From Poseidonia sp. (GTDB lineage: Archaea > Thermoplasmatota > Poseidoniia > Poseidoniales > Poseidoniaceae): a stretch of 64,000 nt of DNA. Both the position numbers and the translations under genes were made by a program. Every line of letters begins with the position of its first letter. The stretch's first letter is position 1. The DNA lies in assembly GCA_965661285.1 (NCBI GenBank), contig CBFIDD010000002.1, forward strand, positions 96,001-160,000, given 5' to 3'. The notes below the pieces were generated by a model, which was not told where the DNA came from, searched no databases, and saw nothing but the letters and a program-made list of their open reading frames with translations. Below, piece after piece: positions 28,582 to 35,499 of this stretch.

Positions 28582-29430
28582 TTAATCCTCTTTAGCGTTG
28601 GTTTCGTCTGAAGCCTCTTTGGCCTTGTCGGATTCCGCGTCTTTTTGCTCCTTCTTGGCCTTGCGCTCTTCCTGGCGCTTGAGAAGTTGGTCGCCGAAGT
28701 TGCCCATGTTCTCAAGCCGTGCCCAAATACCGGTAGCCTTCTCCTCCTCAGAGGGTACATACTTCACGAGGTAAGCGCCAAAGAGCAAATCGTACAATCC
28801 CTGTCCCATCTCGCTTCCATTGCGAAGGAAGCGGTCAACGAACCAGACGATGATGAAGATCGTGCCGAGGGAGAAGATGATGATGGCACCGGTGTTATCG
28901 GCCTCCGACAGCTTCTGGAATTGGGTAGCGACCGAGATCACACCAATGAGTGCACCAAGTCCTTTCGTGTTCTCGAGGATTCCGTGCAGAAACAGCGGGT
29001 TGGCACCGTTGCCTCGGATAAATTTCGTGCGAGATACAAATTGACCGAGGTTTCGGCTGAACTTCATCGGAATGAAGATGGCATTCAGGATGATGATGCC
29101 GCCGCTGGTCGCGAAGAGGATGGTGGTGATGATGCCTGTGTCGGATGACGCGATGAAGAGCGCAGCAAAGAGGACACCGAAGTTGATGATGAAATTCACG
29201 AGCCATGAAATCCGGCGGTTCATGTTGGTCGCCAGTTCGTAATCATCCGCAAGACCAACGGGGCGTGCTCGAGGCGTACGCACCTTCTTGGTCTTGGCCG
29301 CCTTTTGAGCTTTCACGGGTTTGGCTTTAGCCGCCTTGGCTACCGGCTTGGCTTTGGCAACTGGTTTTGCCTTCGCTACCGGTTTTTTATCGTCCCCGCC
29401 AGATGCTGCTGCCTTGTCAAGTAGTCCCAT
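28582..29430 (-). CDS. Membrane protein (possibly RDD-like) with Lys/Ala-rich N-terminus
   Basis: KPVAKA repeats, RRISWLVNFII, about 4 TM helices, GQGLYDLLFGAYLV resembling the RDD C-terminal motif. Confidence 0.65.
   Translation of the reverse strand: MGLLDKAAASGGDDKKPVAKAKPVAKAKPVAKAAKAKPVKAQKAAKTKKVRTPRARPVGLADDYELATNMNRRISWLVNFIINFGVLFAALFIASSDTGIITTILFATSGGIIILNAIFIPMKFSRNLGQFVSRTKFIRGNGANPLFLHGILENTKGLGALIGVISVATQFQKLSEADNTGAIIIFSLGTIFIIVWFVDRFLRNGSEMGQGLYDLLFGAYLVKYVPSEEEKATGIWARLENMGNFGDQLLKRQEERKAKKEQKDAESDKAKEASDETNAKED
29284..29388 (-). repeat. Coding low-complexity repeat (KPVAKA)x3 plus Lys/Ala tract
   Basis: Translation KKPVAKAKPVAKAKPVAKAAKAKPVKAQKAAKTKK with synonymous codon variation between units. 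Confidence 0.7.
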
Positions 29431-29435
29431 GTTGT

Positions 29436-30443
29436 TCACGCTTCCTTGTAGAGTTCACCGATTTGGCGATAGATTTCAAAGTCAGGGGATGCCACGAAGG
29501 TCTCGATTGAGGCAGCAGCCATGTTCCCAAGTTGGTCATCAACCATCATGTAGAATTCAGCCCGTGTATCTTCATCAGTGGTCTCGGGTGAACCCAGCAC
29601 GGCCCGATAGGTTTCGAAGTCCGGGCTCGCAACGAATGCATTGACGATGGCTTCCGGGAGATGTTCACCCAGGAGGTCGTCCACGATGGCAACGAACTGA
29701 CTGAACAATTCCTGTTCGCCTTCATCTGCAGCCTCTGCCGTTGATGGGGTTTCTTGCACAGGCGCATCGCCTTGCTTGAGCGCCTTACGTCGTGCCATCA
29801 ATTCTTGAAGGAGAGGGGTGAGTTCAGCAAGTGCCTCTTTGTCGCCCACCGCCTTAGCGTCTTGATAGAGCGGTTTGAGCGAACGCAGTTCATCTTCAAC
29901 TCGTTTGAGTTCATCTTCGGGAAGAGCAGGTTCGTCTTCAATGAGTTCAACGACGGGTGCATCCCGAATCTCTGCGACCTTTTCCTCGACCGCAGCCTTT
30001 CGCATCACGATGATTTCTCGGTCAAGGGAATGACCGAATCGGTCGGCATACCGGTCAAGAAGAGAGCCGGCTTCTTTGTTGCTGATTCGGTCGATGTGCC
30101 CGTAAATCTGCTGGAGAGGTTTCTCCGACCGCTTGGCCCAGAGATCGTTGTAGCCTTTTTCTTCAGTGATTCCCGAAAGGGTCGTCTCGGGGTTGTTCAC
30201 GGCCGGAGGCAACGGCGTGGAGTTGGAAATAGGGACAGGAGCGGGTGCCGCAGGTGCTGCTGGCGCAGGAGCAGGAACGGGTGCAGGCAAAGGTGCAGGC
30301 ACCCCGGGAAGAGGAGGAAGTTCACCGCCAGGAGGGAGCGGGAGGGGTGCCGGCAATCCAGCAGGCGGAGGCAAATCAGATGTTGGTGGTGTTGCCTCCT
30401 TTTTCTTGGATTTCTTTCCTCTGCGCAGACCCAACAGACTCAC
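29436..30443 (-). CDS. Hypothetical protein: Pro-rich N-terminus, coiled coil, duplicated C-terminal motif
   Basis: 335-aa ORF; two copies of VDDxLG...FVASPDFExYR; abuts the downstream membrane gene. Confidence 0.75.
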   Translation of the reverse strand: MSLLGLRRGKKSKKKEATPPTSDLPPPAGLPAPLPLPPGGELPPLPGVPAPLPAPVPAPAPAAPAAPAPVPISNSTPLPPAVNNPETTLSGITEEKGYNDLWAKRSEKPLQQIYGHIDRISNKEAGSLLDRYADRFGHSLDREIIVMRKAAVEEKVAEIRDAPVVELIEDEPALPEDELKRVEDELRSLKPLYQDAKAVGDKEALAELTPLLQELMARRKALKQGDAPVQETPSTAEAADEGEQELFSQFVAIVDDLLGEHLPEAIVNAFVASPDFETYRAVLGSPETTDEDTRAEFYMMVDDQLGNMAAASIETFVASPDFEIYRQIGELYKEA

Positions 30444-31780: not shown

Positions 31781-31990
31781 TCAATCCTGCTTCATCCAGA
31801 AACGCTCGTCAGCGTCGCTGACCTCGGTCGCCGTATCAGCGCCGGTGGCTTCGACATAATGTTCCCAGCACATGTAGTACTTGTCCACAACCATGGCGTT
31901 TCCGAACGTCAGTCTCATGCCACAGGAATGGCAGCGCGGGCCGAGTTCACCGTTGGGTGCTTGAGCGAGTTGAATGTGGTCGTGAGGCAT
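31781..31990 (-). CDS. Small Zn-finger protein (C-x2-C-x17-C-x2-H)
   Basis: CHSCG...YYMCWEHY; GGAG upstream; co-oriented with both neighbours. Confidence 0.7.
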   Translation of the reverse strand: MPHDHIQLAQAPNGELGPRCHSCGMRLTFGNAMVVDKYYMCWEHYVEATGADTATEVSDADERFWMKQD

Positions 31991-32044: not shown

Positions 32045-32533
32045 CTACCATTCGGTTTGCTCAAACTCAGACCCTTCAACCCAAGCCAGCAAATCAAGGG
32101 CAACAACACACGACTCTGCCACTTCCGGCAAGGGGTCATTGACGAATTTTTGTAGCGTCGGCACCACACTTCGGTCGCCAATGGCTCCCATGGCTTCTGC
32201 AGCTTCGTGTCGAACCATCACGTGTTCCTCATCGTCTTCAAGGCGGTCAACGAGCGTGGGCAGCGCTGCAGGGTTTTGCATCTGGCCAAGTACGTAGGCG
32301 ATTTCGTGTCGTAAGAGCGCACTTTGACTCGAGAAGCCCTGACAGAGCGCTAAGCAAGCCTCTTCGGTTCGTTGATTCCGAAGTGCAAAGACAGCTCGCA
32401 TGCGCTGAAACATCGGTTGGCTTTCATCGCACAACTGTTCGGTGAGCGTGTCCAAGACAGCAATTTGGGATGGGGGCGCTGGATCAACCGAGCCGTACTG
32501 GCTCACTTGTGGTTTTCGTTCACTTGGCGTCAT
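32045..32533 (-). CDS. HEAT-repeat protein matching one half of deoxyhypusine hydroxylase
   Basis: SVDPAPP, RMRAVFALRN, SALLRHEIAYVLGQMQ, MVRHEAAEAMGAIG, EVAESC.VAL. Confidence 0.8.
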   Translation of the reverse strand: MTPSERKPQVSQYGSVDPAPPSQIAVLDTLTEQLCDESQPMFQRMRAVFALRNQRTEEACLALCQGFSSQSALLRHEIAYVLGQMQNPAALPTLVDRLEDDEEHVMVRHEAAEAMGAIGDRSVVPTLQKFVNDPLPEVAESCVVALDLLAWVEGSEFEQTEW

Positions 32534-33423
32534 GGTTCATCCTCTGGCGCGCCGATGAATTTCATGGTGCTTGTGTCAAAATCACCTCGGATTAAGCCGA
32601 GGTCTTGACCTTCTTTGATGAAACGTCGGATGGAGGCTCTTCCTTCCTCACGATAGTCAATGGTACGGTCGTTGACGTACATGCCAACAAATTCCTTGTT
32701 CGTGTCGTCATCGATGCCTCGGCCCCATGCCTTTGCAAATTCCAAGGCCTCATCGGGTGATTTGAGTGCGTATTCAATGCTCATTTTGGTGTACATCGTG
32801 ATGTCCTCCATCACCTTGTCGCCAAGATCACGCCGGACAACGTTTCCGCCGAGTGGCATCGGCCAGTTTGGTGTCCTGGCATTCCACCATTTTCCGAGGT
32901 CTATGAGAACATCAAGGTCATGGTCAACATAGGTCAACTGACCCTCGTGAATGATGAGGCCGCTGAGGTATGTACCGTCAAGAATTCGCGGGATAATCTC
33001 ATCAAAAGGAACGACCGCAACCTCGCAGTCTCCCCAAGCCAGACGCAGGCCGAGATATGCACTTGTTTTCATGCCGGGGACGGCGATGGTGTGGCTTCTC
33101 GCTTCATCCTCTGTGACGCCGCTTTTGCAAACGATCATCGGACCGTATCCCTCGCCCATCGAAGCGCCGCAGTTCATCAGAGCATAATGTTCAGCGATGT
33201 CGGGAAAAGCATGAATAGAAACAGCCGAGACCTCGAGGTCTTGGTTCATGGCCCGGTGATTCAATGTCTCAATGTCTTGGAGTTCGTGAACAAAGTTGTA
33301 TCCCGGTGTAGGAAATGCGCCGGTGGTCATGGCGTGAAACATGAAGGCATCATCGGGGTCGGGACTGTGGCCGATTCGCACGATTTTATTGCCCGCTTCG
33401 TCGAGAGGAAGTTCAGCCACCAT
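32530..33423 (-). CDS. mqnD: 1,4-dihydroxy-6-naphthoate synthase (MqnD family)
   Basis: GHSPDPDDAFMF, DIETLN, GASMGEGYGP, IIHEGQLTY, DLGKWW, PLGGN, MYVN; start trimmed to ATG 33423. Confidence 0.9.
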   Translation of the reverse strand: MVAELPLDEAGNKIVRIGHSPDPDDAFMFHAMTTGAFPTPGYNFVHELQDIETLNHRAMNQDLEVSAVSIHAFPDIAEHYALMNCGASMGEGYGPMIVCKSGVTEDEARSHTIAVPGMKTSAYLGLRLAWGDCEVAVVPFDEIIPRILDGTYLSGLIIHEGQLTYVDHDLDVLIDLGKWWNARTPNWPMPLGGNVVRRDLGDKVMEDITMYTKMSIEYALKSPDEALEFAKAWGRGIDDDTNKEFVGMYVNDRTIDYREEGRASIRRFIKEGQDLGLIRGDFDTSTMKFIGAPEDEP

Positions 33424-33484
33424 GATTCCAACCACCGGTATGCCCTTCAAGAACATTCGTTTGGTCAGGCCATCAATGACTGTA

Positions 33485-34291
33485 TCAGTTCCACGCGAAT
33501 TGCGGCGTTGAATCCATGCCACATGCTGATTTCAAAAACCGGAACAAACCGTCCAGATGATGTTGATTGAGACGGTTAAACACCTCGCCATAATACTGGT
33601 CCAATCGTTCGTAGGTAAGACCTGATTTTTCCATGGACCACTGAATCACAGCCTCGCGCTTTGCGGCTTGAGATTCAAAGCCCTCAAGATTCGAAAGAAG
33701 GGCTGCATGTGCACGCTGAAGGGCCTCGATTGGCGTGTCTTTTCGGGCGACAAAAACGCCGAAAATCATCGGCAATCCCTCTTGTTGCATCCATGCAGTG
33801 CCAAGGTCCATTTGAACCATCTCGGGAAACTCGCGGGCGGCTTCAAGTGCGCGATCTCCGATGAGCAACGCACCATCGGCGATCTTCATCATGGAGTCGT
33901 AATCCGGACCCATGGAGACATAGTTCATCGCCCTCCCTTGTTGTGAGATGAGATGTTTCAGCAACGCCACCGATGTGGCTGAATCGCTGGGTAGCGCAAT
34001 GGTCTGCATCTTTGAGAGCGGGACGGCGCCGAAGAGGAGCACGCTCCCGACTTCGCCTTGGCTCCCGATGCCGATATCAGGCAAGAGGACCAATTCATTG
34101 GCGTGCTTGGCGTAGTCTGCTGCGGGTATGGGTGCCAGAATGCAATCTCTGCGAAGAACGTGGCCGGTGAGCCAAGACGGTGGGGCGGACAAGACCTTCC
34201 AACGTGTGTCGAGTTTGTGATACAACGGGTCGCAATTGATGAACGCCACCCGTCCGAGCGTGTTCGTCCAAGTATCAGCCATGCGTATCAT
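33485..34291 (-). CDS. mqnA: Chorismate dehydratase (MqnA family)
   Basis: GRVAFINCDPL, GEVGSVLL, SATSVALL, LLIGDRAL, DLG..W...GLPMIFGVF. Confidence 0.88.
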   Translation of the reverse strand: MIRMADTWTNTLGRVAFINCDPLYHKLDTRWKVLSAPPSWLTGHVLRRDCILAPIPAADYAKHANELVLLPDIGIGSQGEVGSVLLFGAVPLSKMQTIALPSDSATSVALLKHLISQQGRAMNYVSMGPDYDSMMKIADGALLIGDRALEAAREFPEMVQMDLGTAWMQQEGLPMIFGVFVARKDTPIEALQRAHAALLSNLEGFESQAAKREAVIQWSMEKSGLTYERLDQYYGEVFNRLNQHHLDGLFRFLKSACGMDSTPQFAWN

Positions 34292-35499
34292 CCTTGGGCC
34301 ATTGGCAGGGTGCGTCGTGTAGGCGGTGGTGGTGGCGTGTATTCCTCAAATTGTGAATACGTGGTGTTTCGCTGAATGGGTGAGCATCCAGCATCGTAAA
34401 TCAGGCGTGAAAGTTTGGTGCGGTCGTGGTCAAGGGGGGCTGTCGAACCTGCCAAATGCATGATGGATTCCTTCTGAACCGTACCGTCGATATCATCCGC
34501 CCCAAATTGGAGGGCCAACTCGGCAAGATGATCGCCGATGTTCATGCGATAAGCCTTGATGTGCGGTATGTTGTTCAACATCAAGCGAGAAACGGCGATG
34601 GTGCGGAGCACTTCTGTTCCGGTCGCTAACTGCGCTTCGGGGAGTCGCGTATGGTCGGGCAGGAACGGGTAGGGCACGAAACATTGGAATCCACGGGTTT
34701 CTTCATTGAGAGAGCGCAGGGAAATCATGTGTTGGAGGCGCTGTTCAAGATGTTCGATTGTGCCAAAAAGCATGGTGCAATTTGATGGCAGTCCGACCTC
34801 GTGAGCCTCTCGATGAATCTGGAGGTATTCATTAGAACTTTCTTTTCCGTTACAGATGTGTGCCCGCACCTCGTCATCGAGAATCTCTGCACCGCCACCC
34901 GGCAAAGACGTCAAACCTGCTGCTTTGAGACGGGTGAGAACTTCCTTTGTTGAAATGGAGGATTTCTGTGAGAGATGTTTGATTTCAACAGCGGTAAGGG
35001 CTTTGATGGAAATGTGCGGAAATTTCTCTTTGGTTGCTGCAAAAAGCCCTTCGTAGTGTTCCACACCCCAATCGGGGTGAAGGCCTCCCACAGAGTGAAC
35101 TTCGTCAACAGCGTGAGCGTATTGGTCCAAGTCGGCAAGGTATTGCTCAACCGACATGGCGTAGGCATCATCGGCTTTTGGACCGCGGCGAAACGCGCAG
35201 AACTTACACGCTAAGACACAGATGTTCGTCTGGTTGACGTGGACGTTGGAGTTGAAAAATGCGCGCAAGCCAAATCGAGCTTTGCGGACACAGTGAGCAA
35301 GCGCACCGAGTTCATGGAGGTCTGGATGTGTGTAGAGTATCATACCATCAGCAAGGCTAAGCGGCTCATTTCGGACCAATTTCTCAACGATGGGTTGGAG
35401 CGCAGGCGACCATGATGTTGATGCGATGTTTTCGGCAAGGTTGTCAAGCCAGTGCGCGGCTTCACCAGCAAGCGGTGCAGGCTGGAGAGAAGGAGCCAT
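34288..35499 (-). CDS. mqnE: Radical SAM CofH/MqnE-family enzyme, probably aminofutalosine synthase
   Basis: TNICVLACKFCAF, VGGLHP, IKALTAVEI, PGGGAEI, IPHIKAY, GADDIDGT..ESI.H.AG; in operon with mqnA. Confidence 0.85.
   Translation of the reverse strand: MAPSLQPAPLAGEAAHWLDNLAENIASTSWSPALQPIVEKLVRNEPLSLADGMILYTHPDLHELGALAHCVRKARFGLRAFFNSNVHVNQTNICVLACKFCAFRRGPKADDAYAMSVEQYLADLDQYAHAVDEVHSVGGLHPDWGVEHYEGLFAATKEKFPHISIKALTAVEIKHLSQKSSISTKEVLTRLKAAGLTSLPGGGAEILDDEVRAHICNGKESSNEYLQIHREAHEVGLPSNCTMLFGTIEHLEQRLQHMISLRSLNEETRGFQCFVPYPFLPDHTRLPEAQLATGTEVLRTIAVSRLMLNNIPHIKAYRMNIGDHLAELALQFGADDIDGTVQKESIMHLAGSTAPLDHDRTKLSRLIYDAGCSPIQRNTTYSQFEEYTPPPPPTRRTLPMAQG

Follow-up and report, generated by a model that had tools for sequence, protein, structure and literature searches.

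A half-length homologue of deoxyhypusine hydroxylase encoded by Poseidonia and other Thermoplasmatota

The window analyzed here, a 64,000-nucleotide stretch of a contig of Poseidonia sp., an uncultured Marine Group II archaeon (GenBank assembly GCA_965661285.1, contig CBFIDD010000002.1, positions 96,001 to 160,000), encodes on its reverse strand, at 32045..32533, a homologue of a single half of eukaryotic deoxyhypusine hydroxylase (DOHH, EC 1.14.99.29). The residues that hold the iron and the substrate in the human enzyme are conserved in this protein, which is encoded in one copy at half length and is widely present in aerobic Thermoplasmatota. We consider it fairly probable that the protein is a homodimeric di-iron hydroxylase that acts on the deoxyhypusine of the archaeal factor aIF5A. 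Within this reading, we infer the dimer, iron binding, the substrate and the activity, the dimer from a structural model only.

Homology, half length and distribution

In the open reading frame (ORF) listing of the window, the gene runs without interruption from an ATG start and is complete, encoding 162 aa plus a stop and comprising four HEAT hairpins. Its translation contains the stretches YGSVDPAPP, RMRAVFALRN, SALLRHEIAYVLGQMQ, MVRHEAAEAMGAIG and EVAESCVVALD, all five of which had been picked out in an earlier note made from the DNA sequence. The ATG (32533-32531) shares two bases with the TGA (32532-32530) of the upstream ORF, and the ATGA junction at 32533-32530 agrees with the earlier description of a complete ORF overlapping the upstream stop.

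Among PDB sequences, the top phmmer match is human DOHH (4d4z_A, E 2.3e-70, 238.9 bits). Residues 7-157 of the archaeal protein pair with residues 143-293 of the human chain, which encompass the linker and the C half (130.7 bits), with SVDPAPP falling on human SVDPAPP, and residues 27-153 pair with residues 12-138, the N half (110.4 bits). Identity to each human half is about 50%. The second match, a synthetic alphaRep, reaches 115.5 bits summed over six repeats. An AF2 monomer model (pLDDT 87.8, eight helices, with residues 1-26 and 158-162 of low confidence) also had 4d4z_A as its top Foldseek match (E 8e-11, TM 0.80, 51% identity), and designed HEAT proteins ranked after it (E 4e-5 and weaker). 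Among the matches listed, in which unnamed metagenome rows are unclassified, the named non-archaeal relatives are eukaryotic DOHHs with 42–58% identity. As judged from sequence comparison, the likeness to DOHH is far beyond chance.

The likeness extends to the active site. In the accessible text of the study PMC9117371, the di-iron anchors of human DOHH are given as H56, H89, E90, H207, H240 and E241, and the deoxyhypusine chain is bound by four glutamates, E57, E90, E208 and E241, and by the glycine located seven residues past the first His. Residues were mapped from the archaeal half to the human protein using the gapless phmmer alignment. The first His-Glu motif, H76-E77 (32303..32308 on the reverse strand, codons CAC GAA), corresponds to human H56-E57 and H207-E208, and the second, H109-E110 (32204..32209, same strand), corresponds to H89-E90 and H240-E241. 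Because each archaeal motif matches two human motifs, the archaeal chain holds exactly half of the ligand set. Every iron ligand or deoxyhypusine binder named in the accessible text of that study has an invariant archaeal counterpart (H76, E77, G83, H109 or E110), and these residues are lacking at the corresponding positions of generic HEAT proteins of the same phylum. The columns invariant in 61 archaeal sequences include D17, P18, H76, E77, G83, Q84, M106, V107, R108, H109, E110, E113 and G116; the four residues of the His-Glu motifs are invariant also in a second archaeal alignment. The arm motif S15-V-D-P-A-P-P21 (32471..32491, reverse strand) corresponds to the motif in the linker between the two eukaryotic halves: of 212 eukaryotic DOHHs, 193 have a DPAP-type motif in the linker and one has it in the N-terminal arm. 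Two earlier claims, that the protein is one DOHH half with two His-Glu motifs and that SVDPAPP belongs to the DOHH linker, are thus borne out by the alignment to both human halves.

The archaeal half and eukaryotic DOHH (human DOHH, yeast Lia1; PDB 4D4Z) share the HEAT-hairpin fold at the identity given above, the His-Glu motifs, the substrate-binding Glu and Gly residues and the VDPAPP motif, and the pathway partners, IF5A and deoxyhypusine synthase (DHS), are likewise encoded in the Poseidonia genome. The two proteins differ in architecture. The eukaryotic enzyme is a duplicated chain of about 300 aa with eight hairpins and four motifs, whereas the archaeal protein has 162 aa, four hairpins and two motifs, so the eight-HEAT-repeat dyad in one polypeptide that is a trait of DOHH is absent. 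The di-iron site, which lies within one polypeptide in eukaryotes, could form in the archaeon only between two chains, and the eukaryotic linker motif is a free N-terminal arm in a protein whose host is an archaeon.

A generic, non-catalytic HEAT scaffold of the PBS-lyase type, resembling DOHH through repeat composition alone, is a disfavoured and very improbable reading. PBS-lyase HEAT-like proteins (CpcE/CpcF, NblB, YibA, MTH187, designed alphaRep) share the repeat type (HEAT_PBS, HEAT_2) and a similar solenoid with the archaeal half, in which Pfam detects only HEAT_2, HEAT_PBS, HEAT_EZ and HEAT and which NCBI names 'HEAT repeat domain-containing protein'. However, these proteins lack the His-Glu motifs, which are invariant in the archaeal halves, and score much lower against them, the best designed HEAT repeat protein reaching, over its six repeats, less than half of the DOHH score. 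The NCBIfam lyase-type models NblB, CpeY and CpcE yield 30.9, 24.9 and 23.8 bits, far from their cut-offs of 300, 600 and 330, and no DOHH model was found in NCBIfam. The comparison with generic PBS-lyase proteins suggested earlier therefore separates the archaeal half from them. To our knowledge, no PBS-lyase HEAT-like protein has a di-iron site.

The half length is genuine. The ORFs in the 38 loci read, from Poseidoniales and other Thermoplasmatota, are 154-176 aa long, public gene calls give the same half-size protein for 9 of 10 exact sequences looked up, and the Poseidonia genome (1.98 Mb in 8 contigs, 93% complete) contains one DOHH-half match and no second half. A frameshifted or truncated gene was ruled out by the conservation of length in more than 100 genomes, in accord with the earlier view that no N-terminal half had been lost to a frameshift, the half length being kept across the order Poseidoniales and beyond. 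A search for proteins of similar length returned 2527 proteins; of the 120 listed, 106 are 150-180 aa long, and each of the 106 has two or more His-Glu pairs, together with a DPAP motif that lies in the first 45 residues. Among the matches listed, the source names of half-size relatives are Poseidonia or Poseidoniales, and every source-named protein among the 120 longer relatives listed is a eukaryotic DOHH, the rest being unnamed. A contig scan found 402 relatives, the best 80 of which are all Poseidoniales-type loci, two of them in bacteria-labelled bins. A search of representative proteins yielded mostly two-half eukaryotic proteins and giant HEAT proteins, with one half-size row among 150 listed; two-half proteins dominate because a half earns half the score. 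Matches to a profile of the divergent archaeal group were swamped by short eukaryotic DOHHs. In the ESM Atlas, HEAT clusters of 164-170 aa from Bathyarchaeota and Nitrososphaerota (score 0.96), known without sequences, may be half-size DOHHs. One Poseidoniaceae genome has a DOHH-half match (G068:C122:4341-4766, 46% identity) with two in-frame stops, TAG and TAA, and this may be a decaying copy.

The DOHH half was found in 155 of 201 Poseidoniales genomes, including 43 of the 61 that are at least 90% complete; by family, the counts are 84/99, 2/2 and 68/99, and the genera that mostly lack it have 0/2, 0/3, 1/9 and 1/8. Strong matches (E at most 1e-17) occur in 109 of 401 Thermoplasmatota genomes, and 34 of these 109 genomes lie outside Poseidoniales in eight families (18/19, 7/9, 3/3, 2/6 and four single genomes). 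Thirteen further matches, with E between 1e-8 and 1e-5, lack His-Glu motifs and represent generic HEAT proteins. A haem-copper oxidase subunit I match was present in 175 of the 401 genomes. A strong DOHH-half match accompanied it in 104 of these 175, versus 5 of the 226 oxidase-negative genomes, and all five belong to oxidase-bearing families; in families without an oxidase match (0/14, 0/53 and 0/24), strong DOHH-half matches are likewise absent. The DOHH half is also missing from several oxidase-bearing families, among them one with 20 oxidase-positive genomes of 1.3-2.0 Mb that are 94-99% complete. This association is descriptive only, because relatedness makes the genomes non-independent. 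The pattern is consistent with an enzyme that needs O2 and is dispensable.

Predicted homodimer and proposed pathway

When given two copies of the protein, an alignment of 61 rows and two Fe, ESMFold2 predicted a homodimer with ipSAE values of 0.91, 0.90 and 0.90 in three runs, versus 0.00 for each of three control pairings with unrelated proteins. The runs shared at least 96% of their contacts, with a partner pLDDT of 92 or more; in the calibration of the tool, 20 of the 30 solved homodimers and one of the 23 monomers attained the mark. The predicted interface includes H76, residues 104-106, H109, E113, residues 136-148 and residues 6-21 of the arm, a location that would reconcile the invariant sequence of the arm with its disorder in the monomer model. 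Since a half contributes only three of the six ligands and is encoded in a single copy, activity would require a dimer, and the model suggests that the DOHH half probably functions as a pair of identical chains. With a single copy in the genome, a heterodimer formed with another half was ruled out. The earlier note had interpreted the protein as one DOHH half able to rebuild the di-iron site as a homodimer; the sequence comparisons and the predicted dimer support this interpretation in the parts accessible to such tools. The dimer model lends support to the likeness to DOHH, and binding itself is a prediction of the model.

We propose the following mechanism. The half-size protein, with four HEAT hairpins carrying two His-Glu motifs, would associate with a second copy about a two-fold axis, in the way the N and C halves of the eukaryotic chain do. 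H76, H109 and E110 of both copies would then form one di-iron centre, the deoxyhypusine side chain would occupy a pocket lined with E77, E110 and G83, and the N-terminal VDPAPP arm of each copy would clasp the partner. DHS would place deoxyhypusine on the lysine of the GKHG loop of aIF5A, and the dimer would use O2 to hydroxylate this deoxyhypusine to hypusine.

Both partners that such a pathway would involve, for which a check of the genome had been suggested, are encoded by Poseidonia. The aIF5A protein, with the loop SKPGKHGSAKA, scores 100.8 bits with TIGR00037 (cut-off 75.45); a PF01287 search of the genome detected no aIF5A, and the same model also missed a Haloferax control. Of two PF01916 proteins, one passes the DHS equivalog NF002294 (361.2 bits versus a cut-off of 350), and the other lies below all NCBIfam cut-offs, its best match being 'homospermidine biosynthesis protein'. 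The gene of this second DHS-like paralogue (G000:C1:364697-366004, outside the window) adjoins a PF02675 gene of the AdoMet-decarboxylase family. A PF01564 spermidine synthase was not found in the 93%-complete genome.

In their accessible text, papers on hypusine from 2016-2021 report no orthologue or homologue of DOHH in archaea, which agrees with the earlier statement that DOHH is held to be eukaryote-specific and the archaeal enzyme unidentified. In the accessible portions of two of them, homologues are described as not identified in archaea, some of which make hypusine without oxygen (PMC7432094, 2020), and an archaeal DOHH orthologue as not found (PMC8153317, 2021). A non-exhaustive literature search found no paper linking DOHH to Poseidoniales, Marine Group II, Asgard, Heimdallarchaeota or Thermoplasmatota, and, by their titles and abstracts, the papers joining DOHH, archaea and HEAT deal with eukaryotic enzymes or DHS. 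JGI and the ESM Atlas automatically label the archaeal halves 'deoxyhypusine monooxygenase', and the homology to DOHH is thus already in databases; the half length and its consequences were not met in the searchable literature. The protein is a candidate archaeal DOHH, widely conserved in a globally abundant marine group, for a hydroxylation that has been treated as an open question in archaea. As a natural single-half version of a duplicated enzyme, it suits the study of how the eukaryotic dyad originated, and a homodimer that rebuilds the di-iron site would be a simple, testable mechanism. The hydroxylase reading predicts hypusine on the aIF5A of Poseidoniales. It leaves the hypusine of Crenarchaea, including its oxygen-free formation, unexplained.

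Relationship to the two eukaryotic halves

For 209 of 212 eukaryotic DOHHs, an archaeal profile gave the C half a higher score than the N half (means 176.4 versus 143.5 bits), the 212 being those of 219 eukaryotic proteins with exactly two matched stretches. Much of this C-half excess comes from the arm and the linker. Over a core of 130 columns, the identity of the Poseidoniales-type group is 46.4% to the C halves and 44.4% to the N halves, and that between the two eukaryotic halves is only 38.5%. The S141 column contains Ser in all 28 archaeal rows and all 49 C halves, and Thr in 48 of 49 N halves.

For the large tree, 34 of 82 eligible representatives were drawn at random and combined with 15 named or EukProt proteins. 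The small set consisted of 20 of these 49 eukaryotic proteins, 23 of the 28 archaeal rows and three of the six outgroup segments, the three longest-branched having been dropped. In the 132-row tree (PMSF, quick search), the N halves (96) and the C halves (94) are each set apart from all other rows by a branch, the rows from archaea are paraphyletic, and the generic-HEAT outgroup attaches within the non-Poseidoniales archaeal group. The outgroup moved in the 66-row quick tree, where the C halves join the non-Poseidoniales archaeal group at 87. The C-half clade is monophyletic in the quick trees, with SH-aLRT values of 94 and 91, and in the LG tree. The topology obtained by IQ-TREE with LG+F+G4 was (outgroup, (archaeal group B, (C halves, (N halves, archaeal group A)))), in which the internal branch lengths were 0.06-0.21. 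In all three trees, the archaeal sequences are paraphyletic and fall outside the crown N-half and C-half clades.

The approximately unbiased (AU) test rejects none of four constraints: monophyly of the N and C halves together (p 0.45), archaea with the C halves (p 0.39), archaea with the N halves (p 0.45) and monophyly of the archaea. The last of these is the worst-fitting (delta lnL 9.4, AU p 0.084) and is excluded by RELL (0.020) and ELW (0.027), a result that bears on the transfer question because a single transfer requires archaeal monophyly. Of the phylogenetic expectations in the earlier note, the position of the archaeal halves outside both eukaryotic half-clades was recovered, and the AU test does not separate a pre-duplication form from a transfer. 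On these sequence data, a single transfer from a eukaryote appears to be the least-favoured scenario, and pre-duplication ancestry and an ancient transfer of the C half both appear compatible.

Two origins were weighed. The C-terminal half and the linker of a eukaryotic DOHH may have been acquired in a single horizontal transfer by an ancestor of the aerobic Thermoplasmatota, the protein becoming a homodimer afterwards, a scenario we entertain tentatively. It would account for the preference of the archaeal profile for the C half, for the match of the VDPAPP arm to the linker that precedes the C half and for the Ser shared at S141, and it agrees with an archaea + C constraint that the AU test leaves standing. 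However, once the arm is excluded, the identities to the C and N halves are nearly equal (46% and 44%) and both exceed the 38.5% between the eukaryotic halves, no tree nests the archaeal sequences within the C-half clade, and archaeal monophyly is the constraint that fits worst. Alternatively, and in our estimate possible but somewhat doubtful, the archaeal half is the pre-duplication form, from which eukaryotic DOHH would have arisen by tandem duplication and fusion, the arm surviving as the linker. If this is true, the homodimeric di-iron hydroxylase arose in aerobic archaea, complete hypusination is an archaeal rather than a eukaryotic invention, and the planktonic archaea that are most abundant in surface ocean waters carry fully hypusinated aIF5A.

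Gene neighbourhood and the question of substrate

The ORF upstream of the DOHH half (32530..33522, reverse strand), whose stop overlaps the start of the DOHH half, encodes a protein of the MqnA/MqnD family (PF02621, 209.9 bits). The earlier label mqnD is upheld at the level of the family; NCBIfam models do not separate MqnD from MqnA. The overlap makes it probable that the two genes are co-transcribed and translationally coupled. In 98 of 98 Poseidoniaceae-type loci, some of them from genomes counted twice, the gene order is mqnD-like gene, DOHH half, conserved 69-aa ORF and primase small subunit. All 17 loci examined in the second large family have the mqnD-like gene directly upstream, on the same strand, and the other mqn genes and the primase are located elsewhere on the opposite strand. 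At one of these 17 loci (L040:1483-2865, reverse strand, genome G015), a single in-frame ORF of 460 aa joins the MqnA/MqnD-family protein to the DOHH half, which is either a natural fusion or a stop lost in a metagenome-assembled genome (MAG). The pairing is absent from one locus of the third Poseidoniales family and from 18 loci of eight other Thermoplasmatota families; outside Poseidoniales, the neighbours are unrelated genes, for alanine racemase, M28 peptidase, PurH, SfsA, a kinase and a CLC channel. Because separating overlapping genes is difficult, we read the pairing as an inherited overlap that may not have been selected; a functional link may also exist. Eukaryotic contamination was ruled out by the conserved archaeal synteny.

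Several observations weigh against a homodimeric aIF5A hydroxylase. The DOHH half adjoins neither DHS nor aIF5A in any of the 118 loci checked. Among 201 Poseidoniales genomes, 46 yielded no match to it, and some of these make up entire genera in which the oxidase is retained; the gene is therefore dispensable. In the Euryarchaeota examined, Thermoplasmales included, mostly deoxyhypusine has been reported, according to the accessible text of PMC5178350. The dimer model may merely reproduce the human crystal packing of the two halves, since the solved human structure packs them in the same way, a possibility that the prediction tool itself flags. Lastly, the lock to a gene of a menaquinone-pathway family in Poseidoniales, fused once, could point to another role.

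The last point leads to an alternative that we regard as unlikely, in which a homodimer of the protein works as a di-iron HEAT oxygenase on some other substrate; in Poseidoniales, the enzyme would perhaps be linked to the MqnA/MqnD-family protein and act on a quinone precursor or another amine. The persistence of the gene pair in every Poseidoniaceae-type locus and, despite rearranged flanks, in every second-family locus, the ATGA overlap in the window, the single 460-aa frame and the consistent separation from DHS and aIF5A would all be in keeping with such a role. However, the pairing is confined to Poseidoniales and missing even from the third-family locus, the neighbours of the DOHH half in the other families are unrelated genes, and the fusion, with one case among 17 loci, may have arisen as a MAG error. 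Moreover, the archaeal halves show no variation at the residues with which human DOHH binds the deoxyhypusine chain, and we know of no oxygen-dependent hydroxylation in the futalosine pathway. We continue to favour deoxyhypusine on aIF5A as the probable substrate.

Other features of the neighbourhood were recorded. The 69-aa ORF between the DOHH half and the primase small subunit (31781-31990 in the window, reverse strand) contains Cys and His residues and is kept beside priS, with 39-100% identity, in 115 of 116 Poseidoniales loci by tblastn; neither Pfam nor NCBIfam gave it a name. The radical-SAM gene of the mqn cluster (34288-35499, reverse strand) scores 417.1 bits with the aminofutalosine synthase MqnE, whose cut-off is 434.55, versus 338.7 bits with MqnC. 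Two MAGs labelled Verrucomicrobiales bacterium and Rhodobiaceae bacterium (L048 and L121) carry the whole Poseidoniales mqn/DOHH-half/priS locus with 65-85% protein identity and are probably mis-binned archaeal contigs. At 28582-30443 on the reverse strand of the window, two adjoining ORFs show low complexity, one of 285 aa with Lys/Ala/Pro repeats and one of 335 aa with a Pro/Ala-rich N-terminus.
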